A stretch of 28,083 bases of DNA from Verrucomicrobiota bacterium. Lineage in GTDB: Bacteria; Verrucomicrobiota; Verrucomicrobiia; Limisphaerales; UBA11358. The position numbers were made by a program, and so were the translations under genes. Within the stretch, counting starts at the first letter, position 1; the number at the start of each line of letters is the position of its first letter. The stretch spans positions 1-28,083 of the forward strand of contig JBEKRA010000001.1 of assembly GCA_049519195.1 (NCBI GenBank), given 5' to 3'. Below are positions 19,540 to 28,083 of the stretch, piece after piece. The notes below the pieces were generated by a model, which saw only the letters and a program-made list of their open reading frames with translations, did not search any database and was not told where the DNA came from.

Positions 19540-20196
19540 TTAAAGCCACAGTTTCAAATTTTCACGAAGAATCTGCCGGGCGCGATAAAGTCTTGATTCC
19601 ACGGCCTTCGGCGTTGTTTCCAAAATGGTTGCGGCCTCGACCAGGCTGTGCTCCTCCCATTCGCACAGCACAATTGCCTCGCGCAAATCGTCCGGCAATT
19701 TGCCGACGGCCGCGCGGACGGCAGCGGCGCGCTCGGCATCGAGCGCCTGTTCGTTCGGTGCGGGAATGTCGGATGGAAGCGTGCTGCCCAGCGTCTGTTC
19801 CGTTTCTGCATTTTCCGTTTCGAGCGAAATGTTCGGATGCCGGCTGCGCCAGCGGAAGTGATTGCGCGCCAGATTTGCGGCGATGGTGTAAAGCCAGGTG
19901 GAAAATCTTTCGCTGGTCCGGAAACTGCCGCTCGACTTGAAAACCCGGACGAAAGTTTCCTGCGCCAGATCATTTGCATCGTCCTCGTTGCCAACCATGC
20001 GGCAGAGGAAATGGAACACCGGCGTGGCGTGGCGTTGCATCAAATCGTTGAGCGCCGTGTCCCGGCCGGCAATCAGGCGTTCCATGTCCGCCCGGTCGCG
20101 GGCGTCGTCGAACTGCCGCGCCAACTCGTCGCGCCGGAGTGAAACGGAGGTGGAAGCCTCCGGCGAAGGCCGGGCATCAGGGCTGGTGATGCTCAT
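19540..20196 (-). CDS. ECF RNA polymerase sigma-70 factor
   Basis: DANDLAQETFVRVF (region 2.2), FSTWLYTIAANLARNHFR, and region 4 VGKLPDDLREAIVL...EAATILETTPKAVESRLYRARQILR. Start uncertain (ATG 20196 or TTG 20220). Confidence 0.95.
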   Translation of the reverse strand: MSITSPDARPSPEASTSVSLRRDELARQFDDARDRADMERLIAGRDTALNDLMQRHATPVFHFLCRMVGNEDDANDLAQETFVRVFKSSGSFRTSERFSTWLYTIAANLARNHFRWRSRHPNISLETENAETEQTLGSTLPSDIPAPNEQALDAERAAAVRAAVGKLPDDLREAIVLCEWEEHSLVEAATILETTPKAVESRLYRARQILRENLKLWL

Positions 20197-20722
20197 GGCC
20201 GGCGGACATGGACTGCTCAATCTCCTCGTGGAAACCGAGCGTGAGTTTTTTCATTTCGGCAAGATAACGGCGGCCCTGCTCCGGCGGCATGGCCTGGCTG
20301 ACGATGATGAAGTGCTGCAACATTTGCGCCTGGCATTGCGCGCGCAGCTCGCCGAGTTCGGTCAGTTTCTTTTGCGCCCCGGCGGTCACATTGGTTCCGT
20401 TGCCGAGCGCGGCTTGAACTTCCGTCTTTTTGGCCGCGATCAACGCGCACATTTTGGCGCATTGCGGCATGTAGCCTTCGTGAAGCTGCCGGACGCGCGC
20501 CATCTCGGCATCGCTCAAATGAAATGCATCGCGCAGCCAGCTCAAATTGTCCGCCGAGCGCGTCATCAGGCACGCACGCTGGCTGACAAAGCAGGCGCCG
20601 GCAAAAACCGCTGCTGCCAGCGTCACGGCACCCAGCAAAATGACAAGCGACCGGCCTTCGCCGGGCCGTAGCTTGCCGGAAAACGGCTGGAATTTTCCGA
20701 AGGGATTGAAATTGTGACGCAT
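20177..20722 (-). CDS. Periplasmic heavy-metal sensor, CnrX/NccX/ZraP/Spy-like helical protein, Cys/Met/His-rich
   Basis: N-terminal TM, LSWLRDAFHLSDAE, LHEGYMPQCAKMC, RAQCQAQMLQHF, MPPEQGRRY and a C-terminal HEHH. The ancestral start was probably ATG 20761, now interrupted by an insertion. Confidence 0.75.
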   Translation of the reverse strand: MRHNFNPFGKFQPFSGKLRPGEGRSLVILLGAVTLAAAVFAGACFVSQRACLMTRSADNLSWLRDAFHLSDAEMARVRQLHEGYMPQCAKMCALIAAKKTEVQAALGNGTNVTAGAQKKLTELGELRAQCQAQMLQHFIIVSQAMPPEQGRRYLAEMKKLTLGFHEEIEQSMSAGHEHHQP

Positions 20723-20752
20723 TGGAAATCAGAGGCTTCGGCCCGGCGAAGG
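20655..20752. mobile_element. 98-bp MITE-like insertion in the sensor start region, flanked by a duplicated CCGG
   Basis: TIR CCTTCGCCGGGCCGTAGC / GCTTCGGCCCGGCGAAGG; CCGG at 20651-20654 and 20753-20756. Confidence 0.85.
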
Positions 20753-20761
20753 CCGGTTCAT

Positions 20762-21076
20762 TTAACGCAATGAATTCGGCGCGACTGCGGCAAGATAACG
20801 CGCCTGCGCGTCCTGCCTGGCGGTTTGCGCGCCTTGATAAGTTCCCAGCAAAACACCCGCCAGCACCAGAGTGGCGACCGTGGCGTAGGCGAATCGTGGC
20901 CGCAACACCAGCGAGGCGAGCGCATCCAGCCAGGAGCCGGATTTCACCGGCGCTTCGGCTTCCTCAATCCGCCGCCAGACATTTTCCTGAAAGCGCGGCG
21001 GCAGCAAAGGCGACGGGCGCGCGGCGCGCAGGACTTCGCAAAATTCGGTGTCGCTTGGATTCATGTTTTCTTTCAT
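20762..21076 (-). CDS. Putative single-pass anti-sigma factor (CnrY-like architecture, 104 aa)
   Basis: MKENMNPSDTEFCEVLRAARPSPLLPPRFQENVWRRI, then TM FAYATVATLVLAGVLLGTY and a short periplasmic tail (ARYLAAVAP). First gene of the operon that ends in the ECF sigma. The longer 253-aa ORF-track extension overlaps the helicase gene and is unlikely. Confidence 0.7.
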   Translation of the reverse strand: MKENMNPSDTEFCEVLRAARPSPLLPPRFQENVWRRIEEAEAPVKSGSWLDALASLVLRPRFAYATVATLVLAGVLLGTYQGAQTARQDAQARYLAAVAPNSLR

Positions 21077-21172
21077 CGGTTCATGGGCGGCGGTGTTATT
21101 GTCCGCCGCCCATATTCTATCGTTTTTGTTGCGCCGGGCAATCCGGCAGACTTCATCTGGTTGTATATCTGT

Positions 21173-21201
21173 CTTACCCCGGCCAGCCGGAAATCCCTCA
21201 A
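21173..21201 (-). promoter_or_regulatory. Putative ECF-sigma promoter of the regulatory operon
   Basis: TTGAGGGATTTC-N12-GTAAG on the minus strand. Identical boxes and spacing at 23550-23578. Confidence 0.8.
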
Positions 21202-21284: not shown

Positions 21285-23441
21285 ATGTTGGATTTGAAAA
21301 CGCTCAACCCGCAGCAGCGCCAGGCGGCCGAAACCGTCAAAGGTCCGGTGCTCATTCTTGCCGGCGCGGGCACCGGCAAGACGCGCGTCATCACGTTCCG
21401 CATCGCGCACATGGTCGCGCGCGGGATTTCGCCGACGCACATCCTCGGCGTCACGTTCACCAACAAGGCCGCGCGCGAAATGCAGGAGCGGGTGAAAAAA
21501 CTTGTGCCGCGCCCGCGCGCCAATTCTGACCCTCAACTCTCAACCCTCAACTCTCAACCAACAATCTGCACGTTTCACTCGCTCTGCGTCCGCATTTTGC
21601 GGCAGCACATCGAAAAGCTCGGCTACAAGCGCAATTTCGTCATCTACGACGAATCGGAGCAGCTTGGCGCGGTCAAAAAGATTTTGAGCAGCATTTCCGC
21701 GAAGGGCGAGAAGGTTGACCCCGGCGCGGTGCTGGCGGTGTTGAGCAAATTCAAAAATCAAGTGGCACAGGCGTCTTGCCTGTCAGGTTCTGAAAAGAAA
21801 CACACAGGCGGGACGCCTGTGCCACTATTTGGTGATCCGAGCGTCCGCGCGCTGGCGCAGCACATTGCCAAGCGTTACGAATCCGCATTGCACGCCTGCA
21901 ACGCCGTGGATTTTGATGATTTGATCCTGCTCACGCTGCGGCTGTTCCGCGAGCAGCCTGACACGCTCGCAGCCTGCCGCGCGAAATTTCGTTACGTCAT
22001 GGTGGACGAGTATCAGGACACGAACGCCGCGCAATTTGAGCTGGTCCACGCGCTCACGAAGGAGCACCGGAATCTCTGCGTGGTCGGCGACGACGACCAG
22101 AGCATCTACGGCTGGCGCGGCGCGGAGATCGCCAACCTGCTCGACATGGAAAAGCATTTCCCCGAGGTCAAAATCATCAAGCTGGAGCAGAATTACCGCA
22201 GCACCAGGACGATTCTCAACGCCGCCAACGCCATCATCAAGCACAACGTCCGGCGGCGCGGCAAATCGCTGTGGTCAAGCAAGGGCGCGGGCGGGAAAAT
22301 CCAGTTGCACACGTTTAACAACGACGAAACCGAGGCGCGCGAAATCGTGGCGCAGATTGAATTCAAGCGGCTGGCGCACCGGACGCCTTGGCGGGATTGC
22401 GCGATCCTCTTCCGCACGAACCAGCAGTCGCGTCCGCTTGAAACCGCGCTACGCACCGCCGGCGTGCGCTATCATTTGATCGGCGGCCAGAGCTTCTTTG
22501 ATCGGCGCGAGGTGAAGGATTTTCTCGCCTACCTGAAAATGTTCCTGAACCCGCACGATGACATCAGCCTTTTGCGCATCGCCAATGTGCCGGCGCGCGG
22601 CTTGAGCGACGTGACGATGGAACGGCTGCTCGGCGCGAGCCACGACCGGAAATGTTCCGTCTTCACCGCGATGAAAAATCCGCTGGTGACGACGACGTTC
22701 CAGTCCAACACGCGCAAAAGCATCGAGGCGTTTGTGGAATTCGTCGAGCGGACACGCGGGCAACTCGGTAGTGGCACAGGCATCTTGCCTGTGAGTTCCG
22801 AAAGCAAGACAAGCCCAGAAATACACAGGCAAGATGCCTGTGCCACTACTTTCATGCTCGCGCGATGGGCCGACCATTTCCTGAACGAGACCGGTTATTT
22901 CGCCGAACTTCGCCGTCAGGAAAAGAATCCGGAGAACAGTGAGGGCCGCGTCCGCAATCTGAAGGAATTCATGGCGACAATGGACCGCCCGGCGGGCGGC
23001 GGCTCATCACCCGCCGAGCGGCTGGGAAATTTTATCGAAGAAATCACGCTCGACACCGAGCGCGAGGAGGAGGAGGAAAACACCGGCGACGCCGTAACGC
23101 TTATCACGATGCACTCGTGCAAGGGGCTGGAATTCCCGCACGTCTTCATCGTCGGGCTGGAGGACGGACTGTTGCCGCACTCGCGGTCCAAGGCCGAAGG
23201 CACGCTTGACGAGGAGCGGCGGCTATTTTACGTGGCGGTGACGCGAGCGATGCAGACGCTCACCATCAGCCATTGCGGCGGGCGGAAGAAATACGGCCAG
23301 GTGCTGCCATGCCATCCGTCGCCGTTCCTGAAGGAACTGCCGGAGGAACTTGTCGAACATTCCGACTCGAAATCCAAGACACCCGTCGCGCCGGAATCGG
23401 GGAAAGGTCTGTTCGCGGCGATGCGCCAGGCCGTCACCTGA
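21285..23441 (+). CDS. UvrD/PcrA/Rep-family SF1A DNA helicase
   Basis: LILAGAGTGKTRVIT, VTFTNKAAREM, TFHSLCVRILR, DEYQD, VGDDDQSIYGWRGA, LEQNYRS, HSCKGLEF and EERRLFYVAVTRA. Start ATG 21285; the ORF-track upstream extension overlaps the divergent promoter. Confidence 0.97.
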   Translation: MLDLKTLNPQQRQAAETVKGPVLILAGAGTGKTRVITFRIAHMVARGISPTHILGVTFTNKAAREMQERVKKLVPRPRANSDPQLSTLNSQPTICTFHSLCVRILRQHIEKLGYKRNFVIYDESEQLGAVKKILSSISAKGEKVDPGAVLAVLSKFKNQVAQASCLSGSEKKHTGGTPVPLFGDPSVRALAQHIAKRYESALHACNAVDFDDLILLTLRLFREQPDTLAACRAKFRYVMVDEYQDTNAAQFELVHALTKEHRNLCVVGDDDQSIYGWRGAEIANLLDMEKHFPEVKIIKLEQNYRSTRTILNAANAIIKHNVRRRGKSLWSSKGAGGKIQLHTFNNDETEAREIVAQIEFKRLAHRTPWRDCAILFRTNQQSRPLETALRTAGVRYHLIGGQSFFDRREVKDFLAYLKMFLNPHDDISLLRIANVPARGLSDVTMERLLGASHDRKCSVFTAMKNPLVTTTFQSNTRKSIEAFVEFVERTRGQLGSGTGILPVSSESKTSPEIHRQDACATTFMLARWADHFLNETGYFAELRRQEKNPENSEGRVRNLKEFMATMDRPAGGGSSPAERLGNFIEEITLDTEREEEEENTGDAVTLITMHSCKGLEFPHVFIVGLEDGLLPHSRSKAEGTLDEERRLFYVAVTRAMQTLTISHCGGRKKYGQVLPCHPSPFLKELPEELVEHSDSKSKTPVAPESGKGLFAAMRQAVT
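21532..21559 (+). repeat. Heptamer tandem repeat (CTCAACY)x4 inside the helicase
   Basis: CTCAACT CTCAACC CTCAACT CTCAACC, translated as PQLSTLNSQP just before TFHS. Confidence 0.85.
21761..21826. repeat. 66-bp REP-like palindrome in frame inside the helicase
   Basis: Perfect 15-bp TIR AGTGGCACAGGCGTC / GACGCCTGTGCCACT; peptide VAQASCLSGSEKKHTGGTPVPL. Confidence 0.9.
22768..22849. repeat. REP-like palindrome in frame inside the helicase
   Basis: Perfect 26-bp inverted repeat GTAGTGGCACAGGCATCTTGCCTGTG / CACAGGCAAGATGCCTGTGCCACTAC; peptide SGTGILPVSSESKTSPEIHRQDACAT. Confidence 0.9.
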
Positions 23442-23549: not shown

Positions 23550-23578
23550 TTGAGGGATTTCAGCTTTAGTGGTGTAAG
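23550..23578 (+). promoter_or_regulatory. Putative ECF-sigma promoter of the metal-efflux operon
   Basis: TTGAGGGATTTC-AGCTTTAGTGGT-GTAAG, ending 48 nt before ATG 23627. Matches 21173-21201. Confidence 0.8.
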
Positions 23579-23626: not shown

Positions 23627-23971
23627 ATGAAATTATTCAATCGCATCAGCCGCCGGGTGGCGACCGGACTGGTTTTGGCCGCGGTGTTCGCCATGGTGCC
23701 GGCAATCATCCACGCCGACGGCACCAATGCCGTCAAAGCCGCCGAATCCAAACCCACGCCGTATCCGCTGCAAACCTGCGTCGTGTCCGGCGATAAACTC
23801 GGCGGGATGGGCGACCCGATCGTGTTCGTCTATACCAACAAGGGCATCAATCAGGAAATCAAATTTTGTTGTCCGATGTGCAAGTCGAAATTTCTTGCCG
23901 ACCCGGACAAATACATGAAGATCGTCCACGATGCCGAGGCCAAGGTGAAAGCCAAGGACGCTAAAAATTGA
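23627..23971 (+). CDS. Exported YHS/TRASH-like metal-binding protein
   Basis: Signal peptide, then TCVVSGDKL...IKFCCPMCKSKFLADPDKY. Confidence 0.85.
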   Translation: MKLFNRISRRVATGLVLAAVFAMVPAIIHADGTNAVKAAESKPTPYPLQTCVVSGDKLGGMGDPIVFVYTNKGINQEIKFCCPMCKSKFLADPDKYMKIVHDAEAKVKAKDAKN

Positions 23972-24027
23972 CGGATTCACGTCAAAAAAGCCTGGCGGTT
24001 TCCCGGCGGGTGCATGACATTAGAAAC

Positions 24028-24375
24028 GTGAAAACGACGTGGGCCATCATTTGCAGCCTGGTGCTGGCGGGAACACCGTTCCTGCTCGCGCAAACGCCGT
24101 TGCCGGTGTGCCGCGCGAAACAGCCGGTTCCCGCGTGCTGCCAGCATGGCTGCAAAATGCCGTGCTGCTCGCCAAAACCGGCGTCGGATTCGAAGCCGGC
24201 CCCGGCGGTTCCGGCGCAGACTGGCGGCCAGAACCAAGTTTCATTTCTTGCACCCAACGCTCTGGTCTGGGTTTTGCCTGACGCCCCGGTTTCCAAACTT
24301 TCGTCCACCACTCAAATCTCGCTTGTGACGAAGGGCAGTCCGCTTTACGCGAGGAACTGCGCCCGGCTGATCTGA
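24028..24375 (+). CDS. Small exported Cys-rich protein upstream of the RND genes (possible leader/regulatory peptide)
   Basis: GTG 24028 (or TTG 23968 overlapping the YHS stop), hydrophobic N-terminus, CCQHGCKMPCC cluster, Pro-rich linker and C-terminal PLYARNCARLI. Confidence 0.65.
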   Translation: MKTTWAIICSLVLAGTPFLLAQTPLPVCRAKQPVPACCQHGCKMPCCSPKPASDSKPAPAVPAQTGGQNQVSFLAPNALVWVLPDAPVSKLSSTTQISLVTKGSPLYARNCARLI

Positions 24376-24486
24376 TTTTTCTCCTCCCACACCCGCAGTG
24401 TGCCCATGAACGGCGCGCTGCGTCCCAGTCCGTTTTGTATCCGTGAATTTGTTGTGTCCGTGAAATGCGTTAATAATCGAAAATTT

Positions 24487-25833
24487 ATGAAGTCAGTTGC
24501 CATCTTATGTGTGTTTGCCGTCGGCGGGCTGGTGCTCGCCGGTTGCCGGGGCATCCAGACATCGGGCGAAAAGCAGGCGCGCCAGGATTTTGGCGCTGTC
24601 GCCGGTCAATACCGGCCCGCCAACCGCCCGGCTTTGCCGGAGTTGACACCGGATTCGAGCTTGAGCAATTTTGTCGCGTCCGCGCTGCTCAACCAGCCGC
24701 AGGTTGCGACGGCATATTACGATTGGGCGGCGTCCATCGAAGGCATAACGGTCGCCCGTTCGCTGCCGGACCCTCAATTGACCTTCCAATCGGACATCGC
24801 GGACATCGTGATGAACTTGATGCCCGGTTTTCTCCAGGAATTTCCCGGCCCCGGCAAACTCAAGGCGCGCGCCAGAGTCGCCGGCGCGGAAAGCCGGGGC
24901 AAATACTTCGCGTTTGAAAGCGCAGTGCTGCAAACCGCGTTCAACCTGAAAAACGCCTATTACAAGCTTGGCCTGTTGGACGAACAGCTTCACCTCAAAC
25001 GCGCGACGCTTGCGTTGCTGGAAAATCAGGAGCGCGTTCTCCGCGCCCAAGGCATGGCGGGCATGGCATCGCTGCCGGATGTGCTGCGCGTCCAAAGCGA
25101 ACTCGACCGCATCCGCAATGAAATCGCCAATCTCGAAGACTCACGGGGTTCGTTGCTGGAAAATTTCAAGGCCGCGCTGGGTCTGACGCCCGAACAACCA
25201 GATCCGCCAACACCAGCGCATTTTGAAACGAGCGGCGAAAACCCCGACGCTGACGAACTGTTTCGTTTTGCGTTCGCGCACAATCCGCAGCTTGCGGCGA
25301 TGGCTGCCGACGTGCGCGCCGCCGAAGCCGGGATTGCGATGGCTTACAAGGAGCGCGTGCCGGATTTCAGCCTCGGCTTGATGGCCGATGTCAAGGCCTC
25401 GCCCACGATGTTCCGTCCGCTGGCGGGCATGACGCTGCCCATCTGGCGCGACAAGCTCGCGGCGGAAATCGCACAGGCACAGGCAAACGAGCTGGCGGCA
25501 AAATCGCGGCTGAAGGCGGCGCAAATTGACCTTGCCGTGAGTTTTGCCGAGAAGTCGTTTGCCTGCCGTGAAACCAGCCGCAATCTAACACTGATTGAGA
25601 AAGAATTGATTCCCAAGGCGCGTCAATCCGTTGAAACCGTCCGCGCCGGTTATCGCACCGGCACGATGGATTTTTCCGCCATGACCGACGCAGATCGAAC
25701 GGTGTTGGATTTGCAACTGGAAGCCGTTCTAGCCCGGACCGACCGCGAGCTGGCGCTGGCGGAATTATCACTCATGGTTGCCGGTGTGCCGCCGGCAAAC
25801 GCGCCGCTTTTGTCGAATACCCCTCAACCTTGA
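24487..25833 (+). CDS. TolC-family outer-membrane factor lipoprotein (CusC-like position)
   Basis: Lipobox VLAGC after the start MKSVAILC (24487), OEP-type helical repeats (ARSLPDP.L, ERVPDFSLG). Directly upstream of the cusB/cusA-like genes. Confidence 0.9.
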   Translation: MKSVAILCVFAVGGLVLAGCRGIQTSGEKQARQDFGAVAGQYRPANRPALPELTPDSSLSNFVASALLNQPQVATAYYDWAASIEGITVARSLPDPQLTFQSDIADIVMNLMPGFLQEFPGPGKLKARARVAGAESRGKYFAFESAVLQTAFNLKNAYYKLGLLDEQLHLKRATLALLENQERVLRAQGMAGMASLPDVLRVQSELDRIRNEIANLEDSRGSLLENFKAALGLTPEQPDPPTPAHFETSGENPDADELFRFAFAHNPQLAAMAADVRAAEAGIAMAYKERVPDFSLGLMADVKASPTMFRPLAGMTLPIWRDKLAAEIAQAQANELAAKSRLKAAQIDLAVSFAEKSFACRETSRNLTLIEKELIPKARQSVETVRAGYRTGTMDFSAMTDADRTVLDLQLEAVLARTDRELALAELSLMVAGVPPANAPLLSNTPQP

Positions 25834-25839
25834 AATTTT

Positions 25840-27603
25840 ATGAAATCGAAATTGAAAATGATTTTAACCTGGATATTTCTCCGCCGAAGCATGGCGCGGA
25901 TCGAAAAGCGGCGGAGGGCCGCCGCAGTCCAAAACGCTGGCGCGTTTGACGATGCGTCCAGCGTGCGCGAAGCGTCCTGGAGTGCGCCAGTCCTCTGGCG
26001 CTTGAGGATTTTGAAAATGCGCCTTTTGATCGGAATGCTGCTCATCACGGCGATGGGTTTGTGCGTGTTCGCCGCCGACAATTCCATCCAGCCGGAAGCA
26101 ACCAACGCCACCGCCGCTTCTTCCGGGAAAACGCTTTACACCTGCGGGATGCACCCGTGGATCATTCAGGATCATCCCGGCAACTGCCCGATTTGCGGCA
26201 TGAAACTTGAACCGGTTCACAAAACCGCGCGTGCCGGGGAGGCGTCATCGTCGGCCATCATCGTTGACCCGGCGACGATTCAGTTGATGAACATCCAGAC
26301 GACGGAAGTCGCGCGCGGCCCGCTGCGCCGGACCATCCGCACCGTCGGCACAATTGATTACAACGAAACCGCGTTGGCGGACGTGACGACGAAGTTCAAG
26401 GGCTGGATTGAAAAGCTGGACGTGGACGCCACCGGCAAGTTGGTGCATCGCGGCGAGCCGTTGTTTGAAATTTACTCGCCGGAACTTTACAGCGCCGAGG
26501 CCGAATATCTGGCCATGTTGAATTCGACGAACGGTTCAGGCGGGACGACGCTGCGCGAGGCGGCTCGGGACAAGTTGAAATTTTTTGACATCTCGGACGC
26601 GCAAATCGCCAAGTTGGAAAAATCGCCCGCGCCAAAGAAGACACTGGAAATCCTCGCGCCGGCGGATGGATTCGTGATTGAGAAAAATGTCGTGCAGGGC
26701 CAGATGGTGGAGGCCGGCATGAAGCTTTACCGGCTGGCCGACCTCGGCATCGTCTGGGTTTTCGCGCAGGTTTACGAGCAGGATTTGCCCTACGTCCAGC
26801 TCGGCCAGGAGGCGACCGTCAAATTGTCGTCGCTGCCGGACCGCGAATTTCGCGGGCGCGTCACCTATGTTTATCCGAACGTGGATGAAAAGACGCGCAC
26901 GGCGAAGGTGCGGCTGGAATTTGAGAACCCCGGTTATTTCCTGAAGCCCGGCATGTTCGTCTCGGCGCAAATCACGGCGGAATTGGAAGCCTCCGCGTTG
27001 CTGGTGCCGGATTCGGCGGTGCTGCGCAGCGGCGAGAGAAACACGGTGTTCGTCGCGCTGCCCGGTGGCAAATTTGACCCGTGCATGGTCGCGCTCGGCC
27101 CGGAATCGGAACATGACATGGTTGAAGTCATCAGCGGTTTGCAGGAAGGCGAGCGGGTCGTCGCCTCCGGACAATTCATGCTGGATTCAGAAAGCCAGTT
27201 GCGCGAGGCAATCCAGAAAATGAATGGCAATTTGGGGTGGGGCGAGACTACTGGCGAGCCGAATAGCACAACCAATTCTCCGACCATAGACGGCTCGCGA
27301 GGACGCTCGCCCCACCAGGCTGAAGCGGCTGAAGGCGTGGTCTATGTCTGCCCGATGCCGGAGCACGCGAGCGTTCATGAAGACAAGCCGGGCAAATGTC
27401 CCATTTGCGCCATGACATTAATTCCGGTGATGGCGCCGCCGGGAGCAGCCACGAATTCAGCGACAACAAATACCATTTCAGCCTCCAACACGCAGTCGGC
27501 AGCCAAGCAGCTTTACACCTGCCCGATGCATCCCGATGTGATTTCTGACAAGCCCGGCAAATGCCCGGAGTGCGGGATGAATCTGGTGCCAGTTGAAAAA
27601 TGA
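25840..27603 (+). CDS. cusB: CusB-like RND periplasmic adaptor with three heavy-metal-binding (YxCxMH/P...CPxCxM) domains
   Basis: Core motifs KFKGWIEKL, LFEIYSPELYSAEAEY, LADLGIVWV, YPNVDEKTRTAKVR, LKPGMFV and SGQFMLDSESQLREA. One N-terminal and two C-terminal metal-binding domains. Confidence 0.92.
   Translation: MKSKLKMILTWIFLRRSMARIEKRRRAAAVQNAGAFDDASSVREASWSAPVLWRLRILKMRLLIGMLLITAMGLCVFAADNSIQPEATNATAASSGKTLYTCGMHPWIIQDHPGNCPICGMKLEPVHKTARAGEASSSAIIVDPATIQLMNIQTTEVARGPLRRTIRTVGTIDYNETALADVTTKFKGWIEKLDVDATGKLVHRGEPLFEIYSPELYSAEAEYLAMLNSTNGSGGTTLREAARDKLKFFDISDAQIAKLEKSPAPKKTLEILAPADGFVIEKNVVQGQMVEAGMKLYRLADLGIVWVFAQVYEQDLPYVQLGQEATVKLSSLPDREFRGRVTYVYPNVDEKTRTAKVRLEFENPGYFLKPGMFVSAQITAELEASALLVPDSAVLRSGERNTVFVALPGGKFDPCMVALGPESEHDMVEVISGLQEGERVVASGQFMLDSESQLREAIQKMNGNLGWGETTGEPNSTTNSPTIDGSRGRSPHQAEAAEGVVYVCPMPEHASVHEDKPGKCPICAMTLIPVMAPPGAATNSATTNTISASNTQSAAKQLYTCPMHPDVISDKPGKCPECGMNLVPVEK
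25905..26003. repeat. 99-bp REP-like element in frame in the cusB N-terminal region
   Basis: Reverse complement of 3666-3764. Peptide around KRRRAAAVQNAGAFDDASSVREASWSAPVLWR. Confidence 0.85.
27236..27316. repeat. 81-bp REP-like palindrome in frame inside cusB
   Basis: GGTGGGGCGAGACTACTGGCGAGCC ... GGCTCGCGAGGACGCTCGCCCCACC, same family as 153-221. Peptide WGETTGEP...GSRGRSPHQ. Confidence 0.9.
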
Positions 27604-27650
27604 CCAACGAGGAAATGCGAATGCTGAATGTTCATAACAGTTCGTTTTGG

Positions 27651-27806
27651 GGTGGCACAGGCCTCCGGCCTGTTGTTTCGGGCGTCGCGCCCGAAACCGT
27701 TGGCAGGCGGACGATTGCTCCACCATTGTCAATGAACCAGCGATCCACCTCCCCCAACGAAATTCGGCGTGACGCCGAATTTGACGGGCGCGACGCCCGT
27801 TCCACC
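27651..27806. repeat. Multi-hairpin REP-like element between cusB and cusA
   Basis: GGTGGCACAGGCCTCCGGCCTGT ... ACGGGCGCGACGCCCGTTCCACC, with inner CGGGCGTCGCGCCCG and TTCGGCGTGACGCCGAA hairpins. Related to the helicase insertions. Confidence 0.8.
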
Positions 27807-27816
27807 TGACAAAAAT

Positions 27817-28083
27817 ATGCTCACGCGCATCATAGATTTTTCGCTCAAGAACAAGTTCATCGTCCTGCTGGTGACGGTGGTGCTGGTGCTCGGCGGCGTT
27901 TACGCGTTGCGCAATATCCCGCTCGACGCCATCCCCGACCTGTCCGACACGCAGGTCATCATTTACACGCCGTGGGAAGGCCAGGCGCCAAACATCGTCG
28001 AGGACCAGGTCACCTATCCCATCACCACCAAGATGCTTTCCATGCCGCGCGCGAAAGTGGTGCGCGGTTACTCGTTCTACGGC
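27817..28083 (+). CDS. cusA: CusA/SilA-type heavy-metal RND permease, 5' fragment
   Basis: Hand translation: MLTRIIDFSLKNKFIVLL...IPLDAIPDLSDTQVIIYTPWEGQAPNIVEDQVTYPITTKMLSMPRAKVVRGYSFYG. The DAIPDLSD.QV and EDQVTYP signature is Cus/Sil-type. Confidence 0.92.
   Translation, partial: MLTRIIDFSLKNKFIVLLVTVVLVLGGVYALRNIPLDAIPDLSDTQVIIYTPWEGQAPNIVEDQVTYPITTKMLSMPRAKVVRGYSFYG

Follow-up and report, generated by a model that had tools for sequence, protein, structure and literature searches.

A cysteine-bearing relative of the CnrX metal sensor, common in Verrucomicrobiota, is probably a copper or silver sensor

The periplasmic Cu/Ag sensors CusS, CopS, and PcoS carry His/Met sites on histidine kinases. 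To our knowledge, CnrX is the one structurally understood periplasmic metal sensor that is linked to an extracytoplasmic function (ECF) sigma factor, and it uses His, Glu, and Met ligands to detect Ni/Co. Here, we analyze a sensor gene in a 28,083-nucleotide stretch of Verrucomicrobiota DNA (assembly GCA_049519195.1, contig JBEKRA010000001.1, positions 1 to 28,083), which we call the window. The encoded protein has the CnrX fold and displays, on that scaffold, a conserved set of three Cys and one Met. Judging from sequence, it is probably an unstudied, sulfur-based sensor of Cu or Ag.

The closest described relatives are CnrX and NccX, components of the CnrYXH and NccYXH Ni/Co switches of Cupriavidus metallidurans (PDB 2y39, 3zg1, 4clv). 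Like the sensor, they contain the PF13801 domain, an N-in transmembrane anchor, and a four-helix hooked hairpin, and their genes likewise lie between a gene for an approximately 100-residue single-pass membrane protein and an ECF sigma factor gene. The hosts differ: CnrX is found in Betaproteobacteria, and the sensor in Verrucomicrobiota. The ligands of CnrX are H42, H46, E63, and H119, and Ni/Co recruits a further residue, M123, which triggers signaling (PMC6851896). Zn and Cu are also bound at the His/Glu site, without signaling (PMC6851896); the titles of PDB entries among our Foldseek matches likewise support binding of Zn and Cu by CnrX.

Other systems share either the task or the chemistry. 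CusS/CusR and CopS/CopR couple periplasmic Cu(I)/Ag(I) sensing, which we infer for the present sensor, to induction of a CusCBA-type tripartite pump. They do so by two-component signaling, in which a histidine kinase bearing His/Met/Phe sites acts with a response regulator, whereas the window offers a CnrX-fold protein with a Cys set, a candidate anti-sigma factor, and an ECF sigma factor. Cu(I) sites of the CsoR/RcnR type and of the Sco type are built from Cys-x3-Cys or Cys/His/Cys, that is, from thiolate-rich helical ligands spaced i, i+4. Sco holds its C-x3-C and His outside the cytoplasm, on a thioredoxin-fold chaperone, and CsoR is a cytoplasmic DNA-binding repressor. The folds of these proteins are unrelated to that of the sensor, with no homology; the likeness is chemical only.

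Fold and candidate ligands of the sensor

The sensor gene and its landmarks are as follows.

20177–20722, minus strand: sensor gene, a 181-residue open reading frame comprising a 22-residue cytoplasmic N-terminal extension, a transmembrane anchor (residues ~24–47), a periplasmic four-helix CnrX-fold domain (~56–174), and a His-rich tail
20447–20482, minus strand: helix 2 motif H81-x2-Y84-x-P86-x-C88-x3-C92, assigned by conservation and by hidden Markov model (HMM) alignment to CnrX; in the window HEGYMPQCAKMC, residues 81–92, H81-E-G-Y-M-P-Q-C88-A-K-M-C92
20312–20335, minus strand: helix 3 motif C130-x3-M134-x2-H137; in the window C130-Q-A-Q-M134-L-Q-H137, residues 130–137
20180–20200, minus strand: C-terminal His-rich tail GHEHHQP, residues 175–181

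Membership in the CnrX family emerges at the level of the profile. The sensor scores 36.3 bits against Pfam PF13801 Metal_resist, the CnrX/ZraP-type periplasmic helical domain (gathering threshold 29.2), and covers profile positions 5–125 of 125. NCBIfam has no model for it, and a single-sequence phmmer search against the PDB returned no useful match. We built a profile, A1, from the sensor plus 119 diverse full-length representatives at 25–68% identity (120 rows). Searched against the PDB, A1 matches full-length NccX (4clv) at E 3.5e-10 and CnrX (3zg1) at E 3.2e-08, from the transmembrane anchor through helix 4; thus, only the family profile, and not the single sequence, reached NccX and CnrX. 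An AlphaFold2 monomer model computed from the A1 alignment has a mean predicted local distance difference test score of 88.8 and contains helices at residues 23–54 (transmembrane), 61–67, 71–106, 114–143, and 147–174. Foldseek ranks CnrXs chains first among matches to this model (probability 1.00, target TM-score 0.68–0.75), with ZraP, Spy, and CpxP below them. Together, the profile matches, the model, and the Foldseek ranking establish that the sensor has the fold and topology of CnrX: an N-in transmembrane anchor followed by a periplasmic helical hooked hairpin. The sensor is homologous to NccX and CnrX in sequence and in fold, which bears out the kinship that an earlier note on this DNA had implied.

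Spy, CpxP, and ZraP belong to the same Pfam clan and have the helical hooked-hairpin fold, and ZraP binds metal. They differ from the sensor in being soluble chaperones or adaptors that lack the transmembrane anchor, the ECF operon, and the Cys triad. The genome has a further PF13801 gene (contig C193, L002:544–1113, minus strand), which is of this Spy/ZraP type: it specifies a soluble protein with a signal peptide and poly-Gly ends. We rejected it as a part of the sensor system, as it has neither a Cys triad nor an ECF neighbor.

The HMM profile alignment of the sensor family to CnrX yields the following residue correspondences.

CnrX H42: sensor L60
CnrX H46: sensor R64
CnrX E63: sensor H81
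CnrX H119: sensor H137
CnrX M123: sensor V141, four residues past H137
CnrX R70: sensor C88
CnrX E74: sensor C92
CnrX L112: sensor C130
CnrX T116: sensor M134
CnrX F66 (second sphere): conserved sensor Y84
CnrX Y135 (second sphere): conserved sensor Y153

Three of the five Ni/Co ligands, H42, H46, and M123, are replaced by Leu, Arg, and Val, and two positions remain ligand-capable as His: H119 is kept, and E63 is exchanged. The new Cys3-Met set, on helices 2 and 3, is closer to the hairpin turn by one to three helical turns and lies at positions where CnrX and NccX have Arg, Glu, Leu, and Thr. We do not class the sensor as a CnrX orthologue because it departs from the Ni/Co ligand set, of which only H119 survives as such. 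The earlier note, which had suggested aligning the protein with CnrX, NccX, and its homologs, spoke of Cys/Met/His ligands instead of a CnrX-type site. That alignment does place conserved Cys, and the Met, at R70, E74, L112, and T116, and three CnrX ligands are indeed gone, but "instead" goes too far, since the equivalents of E63 and H119 are still His.

The same correspondences suggest a geometry. Because E63 and H119 of CnrX bind one ion, H81 should face H137. The implied antiparallel register, i + j = 218 with a turn at residues ~107–113, would set C88 opposite C130, and the modeled loop at 107–113 agrees with that register. C92 would then follow C88 at a distance of one turn, and M134 would be a single turn away from C130. 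The predicted result is a pocket of three thiolates, plus the thioether of Met, about 10 Å from the residual CnrX-like His2 position.

Conservation was counted in two sets: a wide set, consisting of the 120 rows of A1, and a close set of 120 homologs at at least 77% identity. In the wide set, the three Cys are retained in 115 (C88), 114 (C92), and 117 (C130) of 120 sequences. H81 is present in 109/120 and H137 in 106/120; M134 and M145 in 105/120 each; Y84 and Y153 in 113/120 each; and W62, P86, and H176 in 116, 93, and 84 of 120, respectively. In the close set, C88, C92, C130, H81, and H137 are invariant (120/120), and M134 is missing from a single homolog (119/120). D/E59 and E66 of helix 1 are also conserved across the family. 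The C-terminal tail, a feature that CnrX lacks, takes the form H-x-H(H) family-wide and is placed after a helix 4 that contains Met and His. Two Met of the helix 2 motif are clade-specific: M85 occurs in 10/120 and M91 in 55/120 of the wide set. The conserved core of the aligned family is thus H-x2-Y-x-P-x-C-x3-C ... C-x3-M-x2-H plus the H-x-H(H) tail, with no Met in the first block, and the Cys/Met/His pattern in these alignments exceeds chance.

The three motifs listed in the earlier note (H-x2-Y-M-x2-C-x2-M-C, CQAQMLQH, and GHEHHQP) are all present where it put them in the 181-residue frame. As a ligand set, the first needs trimming: its Cys and His are conserved, and its two Met are not conserved family-wide. 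That note had also staked its proposal on conservation of the Cys, and on this point it fares well, with the triad kept in 114–117 of 120 wide-set sequences and in the entire close set.

Two further Cys lie outside the core. C44 is private to the window's sensor. C51 (20570–20572, minus strand), at the periplasmic end of the transmembrane anchor, is Cys in 115/120 close homologs, and many more distant homologs have Cys, Cys-Cys, or C-x-x-C in that region. C51 could form an inter-subunit disulfide or serve as a fourth thiolate.

The regulatory triad and its predicted target

The sensor gene sits between two regulatory genes, and a motif upstream of their operon recurs ahead of a second, pump-encoding operon.

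20765–21076, minus strand: putative anti-sigma factor, a 104-residue single-pass membrane protein encoded at the cnrY position
19540–20220, minus strand: ECF sigma factor, 226 residues, its start overlapping the 3' end of the sensor gene
21173–21200, minus strand: promoter-like motif TGAGGGATTTC-N12-GTAAG, 97 bp upstream of the start of the putative anti-sigma gene
23551–23578, plus strand: the same motif, TGAGGGATTTC-N12-GTAAG, 49 bp ahead of the YHS-like gene that opens the pump operon
23627–28083, plus strand: predicted target operon, assigned by Pfam matches
23627–23971, plus strand: YHS/TRASH-like exported protein
23968–24375, plus strand: Cys-rich exported open reading frame, 135 residues
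24400–25833, plus strand: outer-membrane factor
25840–27603, plus strand: CusB-like adaptor with three HMBD modules
27769 to the contig end at 28083, plus strand: start of a CusA-type resistance-nodulation-division (RND) pump gene, first 105 residues only

The order 104-residue membrane protein, sensor, ECF sigma factor, with small gaps or overlaps, is that of cnrY-cnrX-cnrH. All 33 of the longer metagenome loci have this triad, as do most of the 20 genome loci. Specifically, the sigma gene follows the sensor gene in 18/20 genome loci and in the 33 metagenome loci, and the gene for the 104-residue protein lies upstream of the sensor in all 17 loci aligned for it, as well as in the 33 metagenome loci. 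The sigma factor possesses Sigma70_r2 and r4_2 domains (Pfam) and matches TIGR02937 at 92.7 bits.

An alignment of 17 sequences reveals, in the 104-residue protein, a cytoplasmic N-terminal part with an invariant V-W, one transmembrane segment, and a short periplasmic tail containing an invariant Tyr in Y-L-x-x-V/I-x-P. Size and topology are compatible with the CnrY class (class II anti-sigma domain, with a cytoplasmic part of ~45 residues that wraps the sigma factor). The periplasmic tail is plausibly a docking peptide, analogous to the C-terminus of CnrY. A weak anti-sigma match was found in NCBIfam (E 0.0029); neither the single sequence nor the 17-sequence profile matched CnrY (4cxf), the PDB, or Pfam. 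An Atlas search returned unnamed Verrucomicrobiota clusters, and a zf-HC2 match at 0.86 is no more than a lead. The 104-residue proteins constitute, by their alignment, a conserved family of their own.

The promoter-like motif ties the regulatory genes to the pump. Its two copies have identical 11+5 bases and identical spacing. In the window, two matches are observed against zero expected, and a degenerate form of the motif finds these two sites only in the 2.78-Mb assembly, where a control pattern finds none. The motif is kept ahead of the pump operon in ~20/28 relatives, and it is also conserved at the head of the relatives' regulator operon. The simplest reading is that 21173–21200 would be an autoregulated ECF promoter and 23551–23578 the one target promoter, an arrangement that resembles the CnrX system in both its predicted autoregulated promoter and its predicted RND metal pump target. 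Some relatives have TTGAGG-N19-TATAAT, which could indicate a sigma-70/MerR-type promoter. We set that aside as the leading interpretation, given that the spacer shows no conservation and no palindrome and that the motif also precedes the operon in which the sigma factor itself is encoded.

Of the 21 metagenome relatives whose upstream flank spans at least ~5 kb, 19 have the two operons in direct divergence. A uvrD/PcrA-type helicase gene (~21285–23441, plus strand) occupies the space between the regulator and pump operons in the window. One more relative, locus L115, likewise has uvrD between the two operons, and L079 has the same junction of uvrD and the putative anti-sigma gene. Since the operons lie back to back in other relatives, uvrD presumably was inserted or moved into the divergent promoter region, with both motifs kept. 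We also note two conserved G+C-rich hairpins in the leader of the regulator operon (21080–21150, minus strand), TCTGCCGG-ATT-GCCCGGCGCA and GGGCGGCGG-N-CCGCCGCCC, the latter directly preceding the start codon of the putative anti-sigma gene. They could be an attenuator or an element that occludes translation.

What does the operon export? The pump of the CnrX system, CnrCBA, handles Ni/Co, whereas the predicted target here is of the CusA type, which handles Cu/Ag. The window ends after 105 residues of the RND protein, and a relative supplies the remainder: the RND beside the sensor of locus L040 is 78% identical to this fragment, scores 1122 bits against Escherichia coli CusA versus 482 against ZneA, and retains the CusA Met triad (M573, M623, M672). 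The triad is complete in 12/16 RNDs from the 20 genome loci, some of which also carry a second RND that is not of the CusA type. In the window's own genome, a contig-end fragment (C64:1–1815, L213) covers the last ~610 residues of a CusA-type RND. It keeps the Met triad, and its identity to the L040 pump's C-terminal half is 72%. Probably, it continues the RND gene that is cut at 28083, with the middle ~400 residues unassembled.

The Met triad, the CusB/HMBD adaptor, and the YHS protein point to Cu(I)/Ag(I), and thus suggest that the target is a CusCBA-type Cu(I)/Ag(I) pump. The conserved Met beside the Cys triad, one turn from C130, would also favor a soft monovalent ion over Zn(II). The earlier note's Cus-type target pump holds up on both counts, namely the CusA-type RND with its Met triad and the shared promoter motif that connects pump and sensor operons. 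At the head of the operon, the YHS/TRASH-like protein carries C-x-x-S-G ... F-C-C-P-M-C and the 135-residue protein C-C-Q-H-G-C-K-M-P-C-C; both small exported Cys-rich proteins are kept there in relatives. They may replace CusF as periplasmic metal carriers.

Competing readings and the window's copy

We propose, at a probability of roughly 60%, that the sensor is part of a three-protein switch of the CnrYXH type that has been retuned: in place of Ni/Co, it would respond to a soft, sulfur-loving metal, most likely Cu(I)/Ag(I). The notion is that a metal ion would bind the thiolate/thioether pocket and reshape the helical bundle, much as recruitment of Met123 does in CnrX. The reshaped bundle would alter the contact with the periplasmic tail and transmembrane segment of the 104-residue anti-sigma protein. 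The consequence would be release of the sigma factor, which would transcribe its own operon and the YHS/Cys-rich/OMF/CusB/CusA operon (OMF, outer-membrane factor) from TGAGGGATTTC-N12-GTAAG. The latter operon would then export Cu(I)/Ag(I). A broader proposal, to which we would give even odds, is that an ECF sigma factor is here fed by a periplasmic metal sensor based on thiolates, perhaps the first of its kind. A Cys3-Met pocket, exchanged for the N/O Ni/Co site of a CnrX scaffold, would read Cu(I)/Ag(I), or copper-driven thiol oxidation, directly in the oxidizing periplasm, and the sensor and a new anti-sigma family would take the place of CusRS in controlling CusCBA pumps across Verrucomicrobiota.

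Several points weigh against retuning to a soft metal. Free thiols are unusual in the oxidizing periplasm, and C88–C130 could be a plain disulfide. The Cys/Met geometry is argued solely from helix register and the alignment to CnrX. The sigma factor matches structures of the AlgU, SigW, and RpoE type (E down to 2.4e-26) better than it matches CnrH (6e-16), whose group is ECF291, formerly ECF20. We detected no similarity between the 104-residue protein and CnrY; for two of its three parts, then, the parallel with CnrYXH is one of architecture, and it is proven for the sensor only. In the window, moreover, uvrD separates the two operons, and the regulator operon has no gene for a small secreted protein, owing to a clean ~395-bp deletion between 21076 and 21173. 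Finally, helix 1 of the window's copy of the sensor carries the changes D59N and E66A, each at a position that is conserved as acidic. Given these changes and the missing gene, the behavior of this copy may differ from the family norm.

Among the alternatives, we regard a thiol/disulfide redox switch as unlikely, although it is the best of them. Under this scheme, C88, C92, and C130 cycle between free thiols and disulfides in response to oxidative or thiol-reactive envelope stress. The signal, possibly disulfide formation catalyzed by copper, would then not be reversible coordination of a metal. The disulfide would staple helices 2 and 3 and change the contact with the anti-sigma factor. The predicted face-to-face placement of C88 and C130 across the hairpin fits such a switch, as do the periplasmic location and the odd number of conserved Cys together with the semi-conserved juxtamembrane C51. 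However, the linked target is consistently a CusCBA-type metal pump with HMBD and YHS partners rather than thiol repair, and a pure disulfide switch would not need the conservation of M134, H81, H137, and the His tail. The earlier note had left the choice at a copper/silver- or redox-tuned variant. Sequence analysis supports that formulation and does not separate metal from redox.

A very unlikely alternative is that another thiophilic metal is sensed (Zn(II), Cd(II), Hg(II), Pb(II), or Au) and that the pump's substrate range is broader than, or different from, that of E. coli CusA. Cys3 and Cys3His sites are typical of sensors for Zn, Cd, Hg, and Pb, and the second, non-CusA-type RND of some loci would suit a different substrate. 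CnrX, moreover, binds Zn as well as Cu at its His/Glu site without signaling (PMC6851896). Against this stand the RND nearest the sensor, which in 12 loci carries the full Met triad of CusA and which resembles CusA far more than ZneA, and again the Met conserved beside the Cys triad. That the Cys are structural (one disulfide and a spare), with Cu(II), Ni, or Zn sensed at an N/O site formed by H81/H137, the helix 1 carboxylates, and the His tail, strikes us as highly improbable: H81 and H137 do fall exactly at the CnrX ligand positions E63 and H119, D/E59 and E66 are conserved family-wide, and so is the H-x-H-H tail motif, but there are three Cys rather than two, each kept at 95% or more, C92 has no Cys partner in register on the facing helix, the CnrX ligands H42, H46, and M123 are all lost, and the window's copy has lost both helix 1 carboxylates yet retains every Cys, Met, and His.

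Retuning to a soft metal thus remains our preferred account of the family, and the window's copy merits separate description because it departs from its relatives in several ways.

20546–20548, minus strand: sensor residue 59
20525–20527, minus strand: sensor residue 66

These two residues are acidic in 118 and 119 of the 120 close homologs, respectively, and N59 is shared with one other homolog. They lie on helix 1, the helix that in CnrX supplies H42 and H46. The two changes may be adaptive or inactivating, or they may be consensus noise of a metagenome-assembled genome. We considered whether this copy is decaying: it shows three deviations at columns conserved at 95% or more, but 14 of 120 homologs have as many. 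The window's sensor presents no clear sign of decay at the sequence level.

The start of the gene has also changed. Relatives begin the sensor at the ancestral ATG, 20761 (M-N-R-S-L-V-I-L), which abuts the stop of the upstream gene. Directly after this ATG, the window contains a ~100-bp element with inverted ends, CCTTCGCCGGGCCG ... CGGCCCGGCGAAGG (20651–20764, minus strand). The same element is present in locus L053 (990–1100), with L079:1805–1880 as the comparison locus. With the element inside the frame, the sensor now starts at an internal ATG, 20722, and gains its 22-residue N-terminal extension; the element breaks the translational coupling of the sensor to the anti-sigma gene. Thus, the earlier note, in extending the gene to 20761, had located the ancestral start codon beside the anti-sigma stop, and the present frame is shorter. 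Because seven other protein clusters at 78–90% identity carry the extension as well, it characterizes a clade and does not stem from misassembly.

The ~395-bp deletion has a counterpart in what relatives retain. Their regulator operon is headed by a gene for a ~113–139-residue exported protein (L079:1105–1446, plus strand; L061:5183–5602, plus strand), which carries two A-L-S-P-R-A-A-x-N-Q repeats and a Cys-containing C-terminus. We found no copy of it elsewhere in the genome, which is 73% complete. As a result of the deletion, the motif lies 97 bp, not ~515 bp, from the start of the putative anti-sigma gene.

Distribution and significance

Cys-bearing CnrX-type sensors are common in Verrucomicrobiota. 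One search collected 1910 clusters (90% identity clusters) at E <= 0.001. Of 401 genomes sampled from the phylum, 63 carry the family, often in 2–4 copies, and it is concentrated in one family-level group (29/35 genomes). In the narrow alignment, restricted to close relatives, the nearest sequences come from metagenome-assembled genomes of Limisphaerales or 'subdivision 3' Verrucomicrobiota obtained from peat, bog, and lake samples. Some members are labeled 'periplasmic heavy metal sensor' at NCBI. In the literature on PF13801, on CnrX-like sensors, and on Verrucomicrobia ECF factors and copper, we found no description of a Cys-bearing subfamily; the 2021 reclassification of ECF sigma factors mentions PF13801 neighbors for a few groups only (PMC7826278).

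If the proposed reading is correct, one small helical scaffold has been retuned along the hard–soft scale of metals. Such retuning raises the question of how thiolate ligands stay functional in the periplasm. The sensor, the anti-sigma protein, the sigma factor, and their defined promoter would, in addition, make a compact set of parts for a Cu/Ag biosensor. Given the abundance of the family in Verrucomicrobiota from peat, bogs, and lakes, these sensors probably govern copper handling in a major uncultured lineage of soil and fresh water.

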